The translations under genes were made by a program, and so were the position numbers. From Promethearchaeota archaeon (GTDB lineage Archaea; Asgardarchaeota; Lokiarchaeia; Sigyniarchaeales; Promethearchaeaceae): a stretch of 18,141 nt of DNA. Within the stretch, counting starts at the first letter, position 1. Each line of letters opens with the position of its first letter. The notes under the pieces were generated by a model. The model was given only the letters and a program-made list of their open reading frames with translations. It did not search any database and had not been told where the DNA came from. The stretch is from NCBI GenBank assembly GCA_016933055.1, contig JAFGBS010000015.1, positions 1-18,141 on the forward strand, given 5' to 3'. This document shows, piece after piece, positions 98 to 16,185 of the stretch.

Positions 98-1669
98 TTA
101 AGTTTTTTTCTGCAATTTCAATGCAAACACACTAACTCCCAGCGAAATAGTACCAAGTAAGATAAATATATGATAACCAGGAATTAACCGTGTAATTTTA
201 CCCCATATTCCACGAATATCAAAGAAAGCTAAAAATACGGGATCGTGCTCAAGGCGTCCTCCTTTATACTCTCCGAAGTTTGGATAACAACTCACAAATA
301 AGGCTGCAGTACTCTCGGGATCAAAATAGTCCCACGCATCATCAAATGTGATACCATTTGTGAAATGATTTGTTTGGTTGACTGCATATGAAATCATGAG
401 TTGTGCAAACGGTCCGATTAACTGGGTCATTCCTGAAACTAGATTTATGAATTCTTCATTGCCTACAATATCCAAAGACTCATATATAACAGGATTTGTC
501 GTAGAGTTCGATGGATTTCCCCATTCATATTGAGTGTAATCGGGTTTCTGCTCGAATTCATAATTGAACACTTCTTCACCGGTCACAACCGCAGAAACAG
601 TAGTTAATCCATGATTTGTAGTCTGAGTATTAATTTCACTTCCAGTAGTATTTAATAATGAATAATCCTCATCAACCCCTGCCATTATAAGTGCATAAGA
701 TCCTATACATAGTGCCCAATCATCTGGTATATACTCAGAATCTTCTGGTAAAATTAATGTGAATGGATCTACCTGATTATCTCGCATATAGAGATGGGTT
801 ACTTCACCACCAATGTAATCATTTGTGAGAGTTGAAGTACCTGCATCTATGTTTAGAACTAATGTATATTCATAATAGATAAACTCTTGAACACCAAAAC
901 CTCGGGAACCATCCAAGTAAGTTCCCGGATCGTTATATTCAAATCCCCATTCAAAAGTATCGTTGCGCATGGCACCGGTGGGTAATAATGTACGATTCAC
1001 TTCGGGTAAATAGAAACAAACATCTGTATAGTTATATGCCCAAGAATAGGTTATTTCATTACCGCTAACTGAACGTTCCATAGGGGTTACTATCACATCA
1101 GGATCTAAACTAGCGGCAAGAGTTGGAAATTTCCCAGCCCAATTCTCGTCGATCATTGTCATATAGAAGAAAGGTGTAATTTCTTCATCTCCTTCTTCAT
1201 ATATTCCATTATGATTATGGTCCCCCCAACCAAACCACGCACTAAGCATATTGCCTATAAGCATCTCGTGTCCTTCGTAATAATAGTGCATATACCAGAA
1301 CTGAGCGGGAGTAAATACTATTGCATCCGGATCATTATCTATTCCGGATTTATTCATAAACGCAAGAAATCCCATCTCGAAATTTCCCTCAGATATCCAT
1401 TTGATATTCCACGTATTATTTAGCCAGGTGGTTTGATTATTAATTCCCATTGAGGGATCTTCCACCTCCCAATTTGAGTTGTTAAAGACCATGATATCCC
1501 AGTAATTCTCGTCATAGGTATGCCCATTAAACACTTCCTCTTGTGAGGGTGGACCTTCAGCTCGAACAGATAACATAAAAAATGGCACTACAAGCCCAAT
1601 TAAAATCGATACCAATACCAAAGAAGCAGTTTTAAACTGTAATTTTTTCATAAAATCACCTTTCACCAT
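98..1669 (-). CDS. Secreted acidic surface glycoprotein with C-terminal Loki-CTERM-type sorting tail (IPGY + TM + basic); S-layer/surface-protein-like, function unknown. Real start may be ATG at 1651 (MKKLQF...)
   Basis: N-terminal MKK + hydrophobic stretch + VRA|EG signal peptide. C-terminus RLIPGYHIFILLGTISLGVSVFALKLQKKT. Ten N-x-S/T sequons counted. D/E-rich mature part. GGTGAT lies 3 nt before both ATG 1669 and ATG 1651. Confidence 0.85.
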   Translation of the reverse strand: MVKGDFMKKLQFKTASLVLVSILIGLVVPFFMLSVRAEGPPSQEEVFNGHTYDENYWDIMVFNNSNWEVEDPSMGINNQTTWLNNTWNIKWISEGNFEMGFLAFMNKSGIDNDPDAIVFTPAQFWYMHYYYEGHEMLIGNMLSAWFGWGDHNHNGIYEEGDEEITPFFYMTMIDENWAGKFPTLAASLDPDVIVTPMERSVSGNEITYSWAYNYTDVCFYLPEVNRTLLPTGAMRNDTFEWGFEYNDPGTYLDGSRGFGVQEFIYYEYTLVLNIDAGTSTLTNDYIGGEVTHLYMRDNQVDPFTLILPEDSEYIPDDWALCIGSYALIMAGVDEDYSLLNTTGSEINTQTTNHGLTTVSAVVTGEEVFNYEFEQKPDYTQYEWGNPSNSTTNPVIYESLDIVGNEEFINLVSGMTQLIGPFAQLMISYAVNQTNHFTNGITFDDAWDYFDPESTAALFVSCYPNFGEYKGGRLEHDPVFLAFFDIRGIWGKITRLIPGYHIFILLGTISLGVSVFALKLQKKT

Positions 1670-10108: not shown

Positions 10109-10561
10109 TTGCATGAATTTGCATTAGTTCAAAATATCATAGGACGTTGTTTACGTGTCGCGAATCAAAACAATGCTTCCATAATCACAGATATTGAATT
10201 GGAAGTGGGTGATTTTTCGCTGGTAATTGAACATATGTTCCAACAATCCTTCCGAACGTTAAAAAAAGACACAATTGCAGAAACCGCAATATTGCATATT
10301 AAACGAACTCCGGGAATTATTCATTGCAATTCATGTAATAGAGAATCTGAAATTTGGTGGAGATCTGCTGTACAGATCTCTGATTCCAAATATCAGCAAT
10401 CCCTTCAGAAATATGAAAAAAGTGTCACACCGCAGGATGTGTTAACGGGCAATTCAGATTTTGGAAAAAATTTATTCCAGTGCTTGTATTGTGAGAGTAA
10501 TGACACAGAGTTAATTAAAGGAAAAAGTATTGTTATAAAAAACATCAAGATTAAATCCTAG
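10109..10561 (+). CDS. hypA: Hydrogenase maturation nickel metallochaperone HypA/HybF family
   Basis: N-terminal MHE (TTG CAT GAA), LEVGDFS, two CxxC motifs (CNSC, CLYC) and a C-terminal GK..VIKNIKI strand. Confidence 0.88.
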   Translation: MHEFALVQNIIGRCLRVANQNNASIITDIELEVGDFSLVIEHMFQQSFRTLKKDTIAETAILHIKRTPGIIHCNSCNRESEIWWRSAVQISDSKYQQSLQKYEKSVTPQDVLTGNSDFGKNLFQCLYCESNDTELIKGKSIVIKNIKIKS

Positions 10562-10566
10562 AACCA

Positions 10567-12681
10567 TTATATGGGCTCAAAATCCTTTTTAACTTGAACG
10601 GCTGCAAATTTGTATCCTGGTTCTCTGGAATATTCGTCGAAAATTGGGAAAGTAAGCTTATTCGTTTCTTTATAATGCATAGGCATGAATACTTCACCCT
10701 CCTTCACCCTACCCCCGATTAAAGCTTTAACCTTTATCTTATCTCGCCGGGAAGATACTTGTACCCATTGGTTCTCTTCTATCCCTAAATTTTTGGCATC
10801 CGTGGTGCTAATTTCAATATAGGGGTCTTTTGGTAATTTTCTTGCTAATAATGGTACTTTCCCAGTTCGTGTATGAGTATGCCATGTAGATATATTTCCC
10901 CTTCCCGTGATTAATATGAAAGGATAATCTTGATTAATTTCTTCTGGATAGGGCAATATGTCGTCATAGAGGAACTGTGCCTTTCCATCTTCATGGTAAA
11001 ACACTCCATCATCAAATAACCTTCGGTAAGTGTCAGTCTTTTTATTTTTTGAACTGGGATATGGCCATTGAATTCCTCCGTGATCCAAAATCATTTGATA
11101 AGATTCTATACCACTAAAATCCCATGGTTTTCCTTTAGTTAGCTTTTTGATAACTTGAAAGGCAGATTCTGGATTTGTCCATCTCTTAAATAAATGGCTA
11201 CAACCCCACGTATCGGCAACTCGGTTAAATATATCAAAATCTGATAAAGCTTCTCCTGGTGGATCGAGGACTTTTTGTAGTAGTCCGATTCTTCGTTCCG
11301 AATTTACAAAAGTGCCGTCTTTCTCACCAGTTCCTGCGGCAGGTAGAATTAAATTAGCTAATTGAGCAGTTTCCGTCGTATAGTACATGTCCTGAACCAC
11401 GAGATACTCCAAGTTTTCCACAATTTCGGGAAATTCATTGCTATTTATCCACGAATGTGCTGGGTTGGTGCACACTACCCACAAACCCTTGATTTTCCCT
11501 TCTTTAATCTTTTCCAATATCTTTTCATAGGATGCACTATTAACATGGGGAATTACACCACTATCAATACCTAATATTTTAGCTACAGTGTTTCTATCGG
11601 ATTCCTTAGTGAAATCATATCCTCCCAGCAATGCTGTTGTATTGCTGAAGATTCTTGCTCCCATTGCATTACATTGTCCCGTAATCGAATTAGGTCCCGT
11701 TCCGGGTTTTCCAATATTACCAGTCATCAATGCAAGATTAATTAATGCTTGTGCCGTCCTTGTTCCTTGATGAGCTTGATTTACTCCTACCATCCACCAA
11801 AATGATACAGCTTTTCCTTTATGTATAATTTCAGCAAGTTTGCTTATCTGCTCTTCGGAAATACCTGTTTTTCTTGCTGTACTCTCGAGTGTATATTTAG
11901 CTATATGTTTCTTAAATTCCTTAAAACCAGAGGTATGAGTGTTAACAAATTCACCATCTACCCAATTATTTTGAATGAGTATATTTGCTATAGTATATAA
12001 TAAATACAACTCAGATTTCGCCTTTATTGGATAATAAAGAGAAGTAATCTCGTCCGTTGCGGTTTCTGTTTTTCGGGGATCTATCACGACTACAGTTGGA
12101 TCATTCAGATTATTTTGTATTCTCCACCATATAACCGGATGGGAAATTGCTGCGTTGGAACCAAAAAAAATCATCACATCTGATTTTTCCAAATCCTCGT
12201 ATGTAAAAGGAGGTGCATCCCACCCGAAGGATTGTTTATATGCTACTACTGAGGTAGCCATGCATTGTCTTGTGTTACCATCTCCATGGATCATCCCCAT
12301 GCCAAATTTTGCAAGTGCACCAAGAAAAGCATGTTCTTCATTAGTAATCTGACCCGTGCTTATGAATGCAATAGAATTTTTCCCGTAGTTGTTTTGAATT
12401 CTCTTAAAATTTCCCACAAATTCTTGTAGAGCTGCCTCCCACGTGATCGGGATAAAACGATTTTCATGATCTCTTATATATGGAGTGGTTGCTCGATCAT
12501 CCACATTTAAATGAGAAAGCAATTGAAATCCTTTCGGACAGGCTTTTCCTTGATTCACTGGGTAATCGAGATTTGCTCTAACTATTGGTTTACCTTTATC
12601 ATCAAATTTTATAATCATATTACATCCTGTGGAGCAATATCCACAAGTCAAGTAACGGATCTTATTTTCCATACTCATCAC
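10567..12681 (-). CDS. nasA: Cytoplasmic molybdopterin (bis-MGD) nitrate reductase catalytic subunit, NasA/NarB type
   Basis: N-terminal CGYCSTGC...CPKG [4Fe-4S] motif with the conserved Lys. NTRQCMATS carries the Mo-ligand Cys (TGC at 12262-12264). Also FG.DAPP, SITGQCNAMG, TFVNSERR and a C-terminal molydop_binding domain. No Tat RR signal, no C-terminal BFD domain. Overlaps narK. Start is GTG 12681 or ATG 12678/12672. Confidence 0.85.
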   Translation of the reverse strand: MMSMENKIRYLTCGYCSTGCNMIIKFDDKGKPIVRANLDYPVNQGKACPKGFQLLSHLNVDDRATTPYIRDHENRFIPITWEAALQEFVGNFKRIQNNYGKNSIAFISTGQITNEEHAFLGALAKFGMGMIHGDGNTRQCMATSVVAYKQSFGWDAPPFTYEDLEKSDVMIFFGSNAAISHPVIWWRIQNNLNDPTVVVIDPRKTETATDEITSLYYPIKAKSELYLLYTIANILIQNNWVDGEFVNTHTSGFKEFKKHIAKYTLESTARKTGISEEQISKLAEIIHKGKAVSFWWMVGVNQAHQGTRTAQALINLALMTGNIGKPGTGPNSITGQCNAMGARIFSNTTALLGGYDFTKESDRNTVAKILGIDSGVIPHVNSASYEKILEKIKEGKIKGLWVVCTNPAHSWINSNEFPEIVENLEYLVVQDMYYTTETAQLANLILPAAGTGEKDGTFVNSERRIGLLQKVLDPPGEALSDFDIFNRVADTWGCSHLFKRWTNPESAFQVIKKLTKGKPWDFSGIESYQMILDHGGIQWPYPSSKNKKTDTYRRLFDDGVFYHEDGKAQFLYDDILPYPEEINQDYPFILITGRGNISTWHTHTRTGKVPLLARKLPKDPYIEISTTDAKNLGIEENQWVQVSSRRDKIKVKALIGGRVKEGEVFMPMHYKETNKLTFPIFDEYSREPGYKFAAVQVKKDFEPI

Positions 12682-13993
12682 TACTCCTTTTCTTTAAGAT
12701 TATCATGATACCTATACAAATTACCGATAAAATCACAAAAATAATAAATCCGAGATTATATCCCTGCATGTCGAATATATCAACGAATAATCCCATCAAA
12801 GGGGGGATAATGAATCCTCCTAATGCTCCTAATCCTCCTACCCACCCCGCAGCTCCCCCCACAGCTTCAGGTACAATGCCGGGAACCATTTTAAATACTC
12901 CTGCATTTACCATTCCCATCCCAATTGCAATCAATACCATTGCGATGAGAGCAAGAATTATCATTGAGGACGAAAATATCATCATGATAGATCCTGATAG
13001 GAGAATCGAGATCCCGATAATAGTAACAACGGAACCCGTTATTTTATCAGCAATTGATCCAGAAAATACTCTGACTAGAGAACCAATTATAATAAAGATT
13101 GCATTTAAAATTAGCGCGATACTGAAACCGAGCTCACCTAAAATAAAATCCCCCGTTCCATAAAGGTTTGGCCAAAAACGAGGAAACCACGCGCTCAGTC
13201 CTATAAAACCTCCAAAGGTTGTAAAATATAATCCGACTAATGCCCAAGTTTTCCACATACTAGCAGATTTCAACAAACTATTTTTTAGACTATTATTCGA
13301 AAAAATTTCTTGTCCAAGAGATATTCCGATCTCCTTTGCATCTAGTTTACTTAATCCCTGCTCTTCCAGTTGAAAAGACCATGCATTGGATCCAATTCTA
13401 AAATAAACTCCAGTTCCTAGCACTAACACAATGAACCACAACAGATACGATCCTCCCAAACCCCAAAATGCTAATGTTATCGTCATAATCAAAGAGAATA
13501 TACCCGGAGCTAAATTGCCTATTCCCGCGTACAGACCTAATGCTTTACCTTGTTCGGATTTTTTAAACCAATACGATGTCTGAGATATCCCGACAGAAAA
13601 AGTTGCAATACCGCATCCCGATAGAAATCCGAATATCAGCAATAAACCGTAATGAGCAAGTGATATAGTAGGATATATGATGTAGGCGGTCAATACGAGC
13701 CCAAAGAGACCAGTAATTGCCATAAATAGCAATATGAGCATGGGTTTTTTTCCACCAATAGAATCTGACCACGCTGCAAATGGGATTCTTAAAAGTGAAC
13801 CTGATAAATTTGGCATCGCAACGAGTAAACCTATCATAGCGTCCGTTGCTCCACCAGCCTTTAAACCAGGTTCAAAAAATTTGGAAGTGGCACCCAACGC
13901 CACTACTGCTGTAAATCCTATAAAAAATCCTAGAGTGGAACCAATTATACCTTTGGTGGGATTTCCCTTAATAACATATTTTATTTCAGACAA
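12662..13993 (-). CDS. narK: Nitrate/nitrite porter (NNP) family MFS transporter
   Basis: Conserved substrate-binding Args in TM2 (GSLLRIPF) and TM8 (GSLVRVFSG), TM7 LYFTTFGGFIG, nitrate signatures AGIGNLAPG and GMVNAGVFKMVP. TTG start preceded by GGTGATC. 3' end overlaps the nitrate reductase start. Confidence 0.9.
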   Translation of the reverse strand: MSEIKYVIKGNPTKGIIGSTLGFFIGFTAVVALGATSKFFEPGLKAGGATDAMIGLLVAMPNLSGSLLRIPFAAWSDSIGGKKPMLILLFMAITGLFGLVLTAYIIYPTISLAHYGLLLIFGFLSGCGIATFSVGISQTSYWFKKSEQGKALGLYAGIGNLAPGIFSLIMTITLAFWGLGGSYLLWFIVLVLGTGVYFRIGSNAWSFQLEEQGLSKLDAKEIGISLGQEIFSNNSLKNSLLKSASMWKTWALVGLYFTTFGGFIGLSAWFPRFWPNLYGTGDFILGELGFSIALILNAIFIIIGSLVRVFSGSIADKITGSVVTIIGISILLSGSIMMIFSSSMIILALIAMVLIAIGMGMVNAGVFKMVPGIVPEAVGGAAGWVGGLGALGGFIIPPLMGLFVDIFDMQGYNLGFIIFVILSVICIGIMIILKKRSSDEYGK

Positions 13994-14007: not shown

Positions 14008-14050
14008 CAATTCATTGTGTGAATCATTCATAAAAACGATCACGAACATA
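14008..14050 (-). promoter_or_regulatory. narK-nasA promoter region with TATA-like TTTTTATGA and blocks shared with the GPH-MFS promoter
   Basis: Minus strand TATGTTCGTGATCGTTTTTATGAATGATTCACACAATGAATTG; colinear match to 3099-3148. RBS GGTGAT at 13997-14002. Confidence 0.55.
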
Positions 14051-14060
14051 TTCGTGTCGT
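14031..14060 (-). terminator. Stem-loop plus T-tract downstream of the Fe-S protein gene (alternatively an operator palindrome)
   Basis: Minus strand ACGA-CACGAA-TATG-TTCGTG-(A)-TCGT: 10-bp stem with one bulge (14036-14060), followed by TTTT. Confidence 0.45.
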
Positions 14061-15351: not shown

Positions 15352-16185
15352 TTAATCGACTGATTTTTGTAATACAAAATGCCAGTAACCCATTTTTCCA
15401 TCCTTGAACAGTTGGTACCTTCGAGAACCCACTGTACCGGAAAATTCTTCAGAAGTTTTCAATAAAAATTTCGATTTGATTCGTTTGCGAATCCAATTCT
15501 TGCGACGTACATCATCAACTTCCAAAGCTTCAACAACATTGGGTAGTATGTTTTTTTCCACGAGTAATTCAAAACCAGCTTCTTCAAATTGGGATTTTAA
15601 AACCATATGATCTTCTGTATAACGCATATCAGAGAATAAAAGATGTCCTCCTGGTTTAAGCACACGCTTTACTTCAGTAAGAAATCCCATCATATCTGGA
15701 TAACAGCGAGATGATTCCACATTCACAACGGCATCAAATTTTTCGTCTTCAAAAGGTAAATCATCTGCACAACCTTGCACAAATGAGAGTCCAGGATTGG
15801 TAAAGGTTCGATTACATGCTTTAATGACTTTTTTATTTAAATCCAAACCTACATAAGTCTTTGGTTTCATGTAACGGGAGATATAATCCGCACCTCCCCC
15901 TCGACCACATCCCACCTCTAAAACTTCTTTTCCTTGTAAGTTTATATCAGAAACGTTCTGATGATATAAATTAACACAAAATCTTTCTACGGCGTCCTCT
16001 TCTGTTAATTGTATTGGTGAGCTGCTGAGTTCTTGGTCAATATACCCATAATTCATAAAACGAATGCGATGATTTCGATCCTTTGTTTGAATTAACCAAT
16101 GAAAAAAAGTCCAAAGAGGTTTCCTCCATCCCGGGGTCATTTCTGCATATTTTTCTGCAATGTTCCTGCGTGGCATGAATTTCAC
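15352..16185 (-). CDS. Class I SAM-dependent methyltransferase (Methyltransf_11), resembling the mycobacterial phthiotriol/fatty-acid O-methyltransferase group
   Basis: Motif I VLEVGCGRGGG, GLD, DDLPFEDEKFDAVVNVESS, LKPGG and N-terminal FMNYGY. Start is GTG 16185 or ATG 16176. Confidence 0.85.
   Translation of the reverse strand: MKFMPRRNIAEKYAEMTPGWRKPLWTFFHWLIQTKDRNHRIRFMNYGYIDQELSSSPIQLTEEDAVERFCVNLYHQNVSDINLQGKEVLEVGCGRGGGADYISRYMKPKTYVGLDLNKKVIKACNRTFTNPGLSFVQGCADDLPFEDEKFDAVVNVESSRCYPDMMGFLTEVKRVLKPGGHLLFSDMRYTEDHMVLKSQFEEAGFELLVEKNILPNVVEALEVDDVRRKNWIRKRIKSKFLLKTSEEFSGTVGSRRYQLFKDGKMGYWHFVLQKSVD

Follow-up and report, generated by a model that had tools for sequence, protein, structure and literature searches.

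The window analysed here, a stretch of 18,141 nucleotides, carries a two-gene cassette composed of narK and the gene of a soluble nitrate reductase, the parts of which are of known types, preceded by a palindrome and an iron-sulfur protein gene (Table 1). We found that the suspected lokiarchaeal host is borne out: the M29 peptidase of the window shares 67–75% identity with genes from three genomes of the same family that each consist of a single contig, the reductase and NarK both have closest named homologues labelled Promethearchaeota/Lokiarchaeia, and the tetranucleotide distance of the contig is typical for its bin. The gene order around the cassette is common to L016, an independent assembly. 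The genome searched (G000) is 3.76 Mb in size and 91% complete.

Table 1. Features of the narK-reductase locus (positions within the window).
Feature	Position	Strand	Basis or placement
Nitrate reductase catalytic subunit, soluble, Cys-ligated (NC-type), Mo/W-bis-MGD	10567..12681	-	Pfam, motifs, model, tree
narK, NarK-family (NNP) nitrate/nitrite MFS transporter, 443 aa	12662..13993	-	TIGR00886, pocket residues
Palindrome, core GAAYATGTTC, candidate operator of cassette	14041..14056	.	~50 nt upstream of narK
Fer4-family iron-sulfur protein, 388 aa	14089..15255	-	PF00037 etc.; directly upstream, same strand

The reductase comprises 704 aa if read from the GTG, and 703 or 701 aa from the ATG at 12678 or 12672, and possesses a single domain set (Fe4S4, molybdopterin and dinucleotide-binding; PF04879/PF00384/PF01568). 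Its only N-terminal CxxCxxxC...C [4Fe-4S] motif is formed by C13, C16, C20 and C48, which are invariant among 55 homologues. The Mo ligand C140 is followed by M141; the alignment partners are HCMAS in E. coli NapA and xH in FdhF, His being the residue of formate dehydrogenases (FDHs). The GQxxAxG substrate-funnel motif reads GQCNAMG at residues 335–341. The Pro-to-Cys change in SITGQCNAMG, initially taken as unusual, turned out to be typical of the clade, as GQCNAMG is its majority state: the motif occurs in 96 of 120 homologues and accounts for 84 of the 89 matches at the loci examined, most of which are bacterial. No RR pair occurs in the first 45 residues, and the protein has neither a hydrophobic segment nor a C-terminal extension. 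Thus, the sequence agrees with the single cluster, Cys ligand and lack of Tat signal and BFD tail noted before, and supports a cytoplasmic location. The AlphaFold model (pLDDT 90.4) matches D. desulfuricans NapA (2nap) with a TM of 0.92, yet the four-domain bis-MGD fold is common to FDHs and does not separate Nas/Nap/NarB from them.

That the protein might instead be an FDH, or the contig misbinned bacterial DNA, is hardly credible. The top NCBIfam score is indeed that of Fdh-alpha (513 bits versus 440 for NasC, all below cut-off), and FDHs are the top matches in the PDB sequence search. However, the active site carries Cys-Met and not Cys/Sec-His, the motif pair RQCMATS and GQCNAMG differs from the CH..RGQNNVQG of FDHs, and grouping with FDHs, which the original prediction had named as an outcome contrary to its reading, is rejected with p-AU 8e-49 (quick tree, 46 rows). 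Otherwise, the tree gives poor resolution of the deep branches that separate Nas, Nap and FDH. Motifs, tree and AU test together support the predicted nitrate reductase identity. A bacterial contig is contradicted by the Lokiarchaeia flanking genes and the order kept in L016.

For NarK, the best NCBIfam match is TIGR00886 (E 9e-39, under the curated cut-off). Residues R89, R305, F49, F147, N175, Y263 and F267 of E. coli NarK correspond to R69, R308, F27, F132, N160, Y256 and F260, so that the two nitrate-binding intramembrane arginines and the Phe/Tyr/Asn pocket are kept; S411 and S366 of E. coli NarK are not. Antiport and symport are not distinguishable from the NarK sequence, and it is the context that points to nitrate/nitrite exchange. 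Identity reaches 59% with a Heimdallarchaeota NarK whose gene belongs to a narGHJI operon and 49% with the C. perfringens NarK, whereas NarK of assimilatory clusters is only 27% identical; in the NarK phylogeny, a quick tree, the reference transporters lie on saturated long branches. In C. perfringens, narK stands by itself. At the lokiarchaeal locus, narK runs 11–20 nt into the start region of the reductase gene before its stop, and a ribosome-binding site (AAAGGAG) lies in the last codons of narK. The overlap noted before therefore holds here, but not as a general trait, since the two genes are about 70–80 nt apart at other loci of the clade.

The palindrome core recurs with 0–1 mismatch 50–110 nt upstream of narK in L016, L017, L018, L159/L160, L170, L172, L173 and L174, and is absent upstream of narK in L019 and L158. 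A terminator scan scores it as a hairpin; yet it persists in L159, in which the upstream gene has the opposite orientation, and we regard it as a candidate operator of the cassette. A genome-wide regulon was dismissed, the palindrome not being enriched and having only 9 intergenic matches (≤1 mismatch) in the whole genome. The 388-aa Fer4 gene adjoins the cassette only in the closest relative, L016, and was rejected as a dedicated partner because its conservation ends there. The protein has four paralogues elsewhere in the genome, and its family is widespread in Desulfobacterota and Promethearchaeota, without known function; it probably stands outside the cassette and is a possible but weak candidate for the electron donor. 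Across the lokiarchaeal loci we found no conserved donor gene and no conserved linked Fe-S or NADH-oxidising subunit genes; a 72-aa ferredoxin gene follows the reductase in L018 only. As predicted, nir (nirA/nirBD), narHI, napB and Moco genes are missing from the window.

The reductase was detected in only 1 of the 400 Asgard species genomes surveyed, and the cassette is common to a scattered set of Loki relatives. The reductase and NarK trees contain matching Loki clades of 14 rows each, with one member (L021) devoid of narK. Compared with L016, the reductase has a dN of 0.17 and a dS of 2.5, i.e., a dN/dS near 0.07 indicative of purifying selection and comparable to that of the neighbouring housekeeping M29 gene (dN 0.12, dS 2.3). 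The matching clades and the low dN/dS imply long joint maintenance of both genes. Outside Loki, the nearest relatives are Bathyarchaeia, Desulfobacterota and PVC/Myxococcota sequences. The suspected horizontal acquisition is supported as to bacterial origin, and within Lokiarchaeia the acquisition is old, not recent.

We determined that nitrite reductases are missing not just from the window but genome-wide, and that those of the siroheme type are missing across the family as well: the NIR_SIR domain (PF01077) was found neither in the 91%-complete genome nor in 13 family genomes (0/14, three of them single-contig). NrfA, Hcp, Cu-oxidase (NirK), cytochrome cd1 (NirS), multihaem proteins and the ammonium transporter Amt were not found in the genome either, nor do any of the Loki-clade loci have a nitrite reductase nearby. 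By contrast, NirA or NirB is encoded beside the gene in 51 of 58 well-flanked bacterial relatives. A Prismane match was rejected as Hcp, its frame of 787 aa having CODH size, and a NirB-like match on contig C17, adjacent to a flavodiiron gene, consists of an FAD module of 398 aa and lacks the siroheme half.

As for cofactor supply, moaA, moaC, moaE and moeA were not found in the 91%-complete genome, nor were a Mo/W oxyanion binding protein or a molybdate transporter. Radical SAM matches of MoaA queries are longer and SPASM-type, the AOR-adjacent one scoring best as W_rSAM_matur. A PBP_like_2 match split over contigs C11/C10 is not TupA but the phosphate-binding PstS, and therefore no moa operon is hidden at this gap. 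The host thus appears, judging from its gene content, to be unable to make the pyranopterin itself. It retains mobA, mobB (MobB over the cut-off, the MobA-like match below it), moaB, moaD, 9 AORs, FwdB and a DmsA/PsrA-like enzyme, as well as an ECF-linked PF00174 protein, a candidate cofactor importer present in 34 of 44 moaC-negative versus 3 of 50 moaC-positive relatives; the importer query gave no match at 1e-8 in three closed family genomes. The original prediction regarded absence of Moco biosynthesis as contrary to its reading. The genes are indeed missing, but mobA/mobB, the 9 AORs and the candidate importer probably favour cofactor salvage over a dead enzyme. The review consulted (PMC9026282) does not mention Moco salvage by prokaryotes, and the literature searched contained nothing on Moco loss in Asgard archaea.

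It is from genes, motifs, trees, selection and gene absences in the assemblies that we infer activity, donor, transport mode, cofactor source and physiological role. The original idea of a nitrate-in/nitrite-out unit, strengthened by the genome-wide lack of a nitrite reductase, is the best reading: with reasonable though not high confidence, we propose a non-assimilatory nitrate-to-nitrite module with a salvaged cofactor that would scavenge nitrate and give the cell an additional outlet for electrons. NarK would import nitrate and most likely export nitrite in exchange. Nitrate would be reduced to nitrite by the monomeric cytoplasmic reductase, whose bis-MGD centre holds Mo or W with a Cys ligand. 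A carrier of the ferredoxin or flavodoxin type, presumably reduced by the AOR and 2-oxoacid oxidoreductases of the cell, would supply electrons by way of the single [4Fe-4S] cluster. The metal-loaded cofactor would probably be imported and GMP added by MobA/MobB. No known type of enzyme reducing nitrite further was found in the genome, nor any membrane module coupling nitrate reduction to ion translocation, which suggests an auxiliary role. Most likely, the cell disposes of some electrons on the side by reducing nitrate and exporting the nitrite, a route which would be active when nitrate reaches the sediment and would be neither respiration nor a substitute for the H2/formate-consuming partner.

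A full fermentative electron sink, in which nitrate would raise the ATP yield and permit growth without a syntrophic partner, is unlikely. The nitrate/nitrite couple at +433 mV (PMC10100899) would make ferredoxin oxidation independent of H2 pressure, C. ljungdahlii benefits from cytosolic nitrate reduction (PMC9124969), and the 44% identical Cetobacterium homologue has the clostridial three-gene layout. However, the clostridial system comes with dedicated Fe-S and NADH-oxidising subunits and carries the reduction through to ammonium, neither of which applies to the cassette, and the rarity of the enzyme among Asgard genomes fits an accessory role. Moreover, the only Asgard case put to the test, the cultured Hodarchaeales strain HC1, the enzyme type of which is not named in the main text, accumulates nitrite and passes ~15% of electrons to nitrate, but shows no growth gain, finds 1 mM nitrate inhibitory and still needs its methanogen (10.1101/2025.02.26.640444); the predicted relief from the H2-consuming partner is accordingly unlikely. 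Equally, a regulated soluble sink in some Lokiarchaeia, with Mo/W-pterin scavenged ready-made, that draws off enough fermentation electrons to loosen dependence on the H2 partner at nitrate-bearing redox boundaries seems quite improbable.

Nor is it probable that cellular nitrate reduction is negligible because the enzyme mostly lacks its cofactor or prefers another oxyanion (e.g., chlorate). Tungsten leaves many Mo nitrate reductases without activity, and activity may be low if W-cofactor alone is salvaged; the missing de novo pathway and molybdate transporter point the same way, and no clade member was found among solved structures, the nearest being ~29% identical. Yet the catalytic and cofactor-binding motifs are all intact, the dN/dS resembles that of the housekeeping neighbour, both nitrate-binding arginines of NarK are kept, and W-dependent nitrate reduction is reported in archaea. 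Very unlikely is assimilation of nitrate by means of a nitrite reductase that is unlinked, went unrecognised or was not assembled, in the manner of Methanococcales with Fsr. Assimilatory enzymes typically have the NC-type architecture, growth of M. infernus on nitrate is supported by a minimal narK-nas operon (PMC13381448), and about 9% of the genome is missing. Against this stand the failure to find siroheme, NrfA, NirK, NirS or Hcp nitrite reductases, the NIR_SIR domain shared by Fsr, NirA, NirB and AsrC being absent from 14/14 family genomes, and the lack of a detectable Amt. Besides, peptide fermenters release ammonium.

The proposed nitrite-exporting module resembles the NarK plus NC-type Nas operon of Methanocaldococcus infernus and Methanothermococcus thermolithotrophicus (PMC13381448) as an archaeal two-gene unit of bacterial origin with a monomeric, cytosolic, Cys-ligated enzyme with one [4Fe-4S] cluster, a proposed ferredoxin donor and possibly tungsten. 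In these two species, nitrite passes to F420-dependent Fsr and is assimilated, while no siroheme enzyme was found in the Loki case; by description, the two are also set apart by their relatives, Aquificales versus those named above. Like HC1, the Loki host would be an Asgard archaeon with nitrate reduction stopping at nitrite, here read from genes alone. Heimdallarchaeia use the membrane-bound NarGH(J)I type (10.1101/2024.07.04.601786) and not a soluble Nas/NarB-type enzyme; the Loki NarK is closest to a Heimdallarchaeota NarK from a narGHJI operon. The fermentative reductase of C. ljungdahlii (CLJU_c23710-30; PMC9124969) is likewise cytosolic and non-assimilatory, and the Cetobacterium protein belongs to the same GNTRxCMATS/GQCNAMG clade, but these systems add Fe-S and FAD/NADH subunits and, as proposed for C. 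ljungdahlii, Nir and Hcp leading to ammonium, all of which the Loki system lacks. Assimilatory NasA/NasC/NarB (NF047855, NF041323; cyanobacterial NarB) share the fold, Cys-Met motif, cytoplasmic site and single-cluster NarB-like architecture; NasA-type sequences are 32–36% identical, the NasC and NasA equivalog scores (440.1 and 439.5) stay far under cut-offs of 1100 and 1000, and the Loki unit has no nitrite reductase. The uncharacterised nitrate reductase clusters of PVC/Myxococcota/Omnitrophota encode enzymes of the same clade (50–56% identity), but with a DmsB/DmsC-like Fe-S membrane partner in 57 of 58 loci and the NirA or NirB mentioned above, neither of which occurs at Loki loci. Periplasmic Nap differs in its Tat signal and NapB/C/D/GH partners, and respiratory NarGHI in its Asp-ligated 1200-aa NarG with NarH/NarI, the narG model scoring 29.5 bits on the Loki reductase.

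Asgard nitrate reduction has been tied in the literature to NarGHJ in Heimdallarchaeia (10.1101/2024.07.04.601786), and nitrate is not used by P. syntrophicum in culture (PMC11316595). An earlier count by Wells et al. (PMC10100899) already included Nas/Nap-like genes from two Asgard MAGs. An old, jointly inherited cassette of NarK and a soluble reductase would mean that some members of the Loki lineage deal with nitrate in another way, releasing nitrite to their neighbours. Nitrite formation by a host without moaA/C/E and moeA would be direct evidence of prokaryotic Mo/W cofactor salvage.

In HMM and PDB comparisons, the scores of the reductase lean slightly to formate dehydrogenases (FDHs), all of them below the cut-off. 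Despite this lead, FDH identity is rejected by two sequence motifs and by the AU test: the residue after the metal ligand C140 is Met, a pairing shared with NapA and NasA (His in FDHs), and the funnel motif is GQCNAMG (RGQNNVQG in FDHs). In a quick tree of 46 rows, constraining the Loki sequences to the FDHs gave a fit 192 log-likelihood units worse (p-AU 8e-49), which upholds the grouping with nitrate reductases originally predicted. The Cys of GQCNAMG, first regarded as an unusual replacement of Pro, turned out to be carried by most homologues (96 of 120). The predicted structure, at pLDDT 90.4, resembles NapA of D. desulfuricans with a TM of 0.92, yet the fold is not discriminating, because FDHs fit about equally well. 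The sequence has neither a Tat signal nor a membrane segment and carries no additional domain; in the scheme quoted in PMC13381448 the protein is an NC-type enzyme.

The host of the cassette is a Lokiarchaeon, as first proposed. Contig C23, which is the entire window, belongs to a 3.76-Mb bin of 36 contigs (91.2% complete, 3.3% contaminated), from which its tetranucleotide distance is typical (0.0070; median of 18-kb windows 0.0066). Three other genomes of the family, each a single contig, hold genes 75, 72 and 67% identical to its M29 peptidase, and close homologues with names are labelled Promethearchaeota or Lokiarchaeia. L016, the closest relative and an independent assembly, retains the order M29, methyltransferase, Fe-S protein, narK, reductase, hypA, with 67–81% protein identity. 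Many C23 genes also have paralogues on other contigs of the bin. The candidate reductase starts (GTG 12681, ATG 12678, ATG 12672) imply an overlap with narK of 11–20 nt, and AAAGGAG sits within the narK 3' end. The junction is likewise tight in the two closest relatives, while gaps of ~70–80 nt are found in more distant loci.

Features of the window and of other loci
Feature	Location	Strand	Remark
narK, 443-aa MFS gene	12662–13993	minus	upstream of reductase
Molybdopterin oxidoreductase, 704 aa	10567–12681	minus	directly after narK
hypA, stand-alone	10109–10561		insertion between its two CxxC motifs
Fer4 protein, 388 aa	14089–15255		uncharacterised family
Methyltransferase	15352–16185		tandem-duplicated in L016
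523-aa protein	98–1669		hydrophobic segments at N- and C-terminus
Palindrome	14041–14056		core GAAYATGTTC
Palindrome copy, one mismatch	C17:373867		~118 nt upstream of a Fer4 paralogue
Candidate ECF importer	C15		two PF00174 proteins; S, A and T components
DmsA/PsrA-like molybdoenzyme	L146:5369–8245 (C16)		signal-less
FwdB-like gene, second, divergent	L182:5683–6900 (C17)
narK–narGHJI operon	L179:5308–15666		Heimdallarchaeota
TDT/SLAC1-family channels	L150:11774–12715; L161:10269–11201		two anaerobe loci
ECF-linked PF00174 protein	L180:1457–6601		nearly exclusive of moaC across genomes
Nitrate-reductase-like protein	L181:7897–10008		G150, another Asgard family

Among the neighbors, hypA lies on the opposite strand, convergent with the cassette, and has a second copy (40%) on C17. 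The Fe-S (Fer4) gene, located 96 nt upstream of narK, has four paralogues on C17. The methyltransferase scores highest against models of mycobacterial fatty-acid/phthiotriol O-methyltransferases (NF045823, 235 bits, below cut-off). The 523-aa protein matches no Pfam family, lacks paralogues and resembles a surface protein.

A clade of 14 rows (SH-aLRT 100) unites the reductase with every Loki-labelled sequence; its sister group includes a Bathyarchaeia-labelled cluster, and the clade is nested among bacterial sequences of Desulfobacterota, Spirochaetota, PVC and Myxococcota. The NarK tree mirrors it with a clade of 14 rows (98) that is similarly subdivided; for unlabelled rows of both clades, membership of Lokiarchaeia is inferred from the trees. 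Except for L021, narK is 5' of the reductase gene in all sufficiently long loci of the clade. The dN/dS values against L016 (reductase 0.17/2.5, narK 0.16/2.1, neighboring peptidase 0.12/2.3) put both cassette genes close to the peptidase, with dS near saturation. The enzyme occurs in 1 of 400 Asgard species genomes, the source genome, the next best match being 35% identical. The matching clades, the dN/dS values and this count show that the cassette is old, maintained and rare. A bacterial ultimate origin of the reductase agrees with the two Nas/Nap-like genes of Asgard MAGs that cluster with Firmicutes and Desulfobacterota (Wells et al., PMC10100899). G150, of another Asgard family, encodes a second, unrelated Cys-Met nitrate-reductase-like protein (35% identity, STRLCMASA); its gene has no narK and sits between formylmethanofuran/H4MPT genes, which immediately precede it, and a PAS kinase gene.

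In the transporter, both arginines of E. coli NarK are conserved, together with those residues that form the pocket. The nearest relatives outside its Loki clade include C. perfringens NarK (49%) and the NarK heading a Heimdallarchaeota narGHJI operon (59%), whereas NarK of assimilatory clusters is only 27% identical. In that operon (L179), among whose products is one of the nearest relatives of the clade, narK is followed by a DOMON-domain gene, narGHJI and a NarI/Fe-S fusion. Two anaerobe loci whose reductases belong to the same clade have a TDT/SLAC1-family channel where NarK would otherwise stand.

About 50 nt upstream of narK lies a palindrome, a candidate operator, whose core recurs 50–110 nt upstream of narK in eight further loci, some of them close kin, whatever gene precedes; L019 and L158 lack it. 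The genome has roughly one near-match per 24 kb; since only 9 are intergenic, the palindrome is a candidate local site rather than the mark of a large regulon. It points to a regulated promoter specific to narK, with the Fe-S gene as a separate unit; judged on the window alone, it may be a terminator. A one-mismatch copy precedes one of the C17 paralogues of the Fe-S gene.

Pfam models and profiles built from relatives found no moaA, moaC, moeA or moaE in the genome, and ModA/WtpA/TupA were not found either. In closed family genomes moaA, moaC and moeA are also missing, and among the order's 94 genomes of ≥90% completeness, 44 lack moaC. The genome retains nine AOR genes, FwdB, a DmsA/PsrA-like enzyme, mobB, a mobA-like gene, moaB and moaD. 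The 183-aa PF00174 protein linked to the candidate ECF importer occurs in 34/44 moaC-negative vs 3/50 moaC-positive genomes, which are related, so that the counts are not independent. The pattern holds within genera g9 (9/10 vs 0/29) and g15 (17/21 vs 0/6) and is opposite in g16. Putative cofactor salvage is its most economical reading, and absence of the pathway, although named in the original prediction as a refuting result, is therefore not enough on its own to overturn the finding. C. elegans has been named as the only known case of such salvage (PMC9026282). In G194, G278 and G281, the three genomes with both, the PF00174 protein is encoded on the same contig as moaC, at a distance of ~7 kb or less. 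The DmsA/PsrA-like enzyme is accompanied by a DmsB-type subunit without membrane anchor. FwdB (TIGR03129), intact in the source genome, was not found in G009, G010, G011 and G004 (three of the four single-contig).

The lack of a nitrite reductase, predicted from the window, extends to the genome, where NIR_SIR (covering NirA, NirB, Fsr and AsrC), NrfA, Hcp, Cu oxidases, cytochrome cd1, multihaem proteins and Amt were not found. Incompleteness is an unlikely cause, because NIR_SIR is also absent in 13/13 other family genomes, including three single contigs. Nitrate assimilation is therefore very unlikely. The bacterial relatives differ, with NirA or NirB encoded beside the gene in 51 of 58 well-flanked ones; a Desulfobacteraceae genome and further contigs of anaerobes also have the stripped form. 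In PVC/Myxococcota/Omnitrophota loci (L024–L103), a DmsB-like Fe-S protein of ~565 aa that has an additional C-terminal portion is encoded directly 5' of the reductase (57/58 well-flanked), usually alongside NirA or NirB. A C17 flavodiiron protein and NADH oxidoreductase could remove NO or O2.

Nitrate would enter via NarK, the reductase would be matured with imported cofactor and GMP, its [4Fe-4S] cluster would relay electrons of a low-potential carrier to nitrate, and nitrite would leave by exchange. Small two-cluster ferredoxins are encoded elsewhere in the genome, none linked to the cassette. As neither an NADH module nor membrane coupling is present with it, fermentation electrons would be diverted partially at most. 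The cultured Hodarchaeales strain HC1 shows this behavior: it accumulates nitrite and passes ~15% of electrons to nitrate, but its growth is unstimulated and it still needs a methanogen (10.1101/2025.02.26.640444). HC1 may use a different type of enzyme, and the likeness is one of analogy. A sink replacing the syntrophic partner, a strong form of the relief raised in the original prediction, seems unlikely. Negligible activity, or activity on another substrate, is judged quite unlikely, and an FDH or a misbinned contig hardly credible.

All parts of the cassette belong to known kinds. Methanococcales have a comparable two-gene unit, and another Asgard order is known for truncated nitrate reduction. 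In the literature examined, we found nothing on the Lokiarchaeia cassette clade, its lack of any nitrite reductase or the conserved upstream palindrome, nor on the occurrence of the cassette in a host without cofactor synthesis. The cassette probably serves as an auxiliary nitrate-to-nitrite electron outlet, whose nitrite would be exported and which would not replace the partner.
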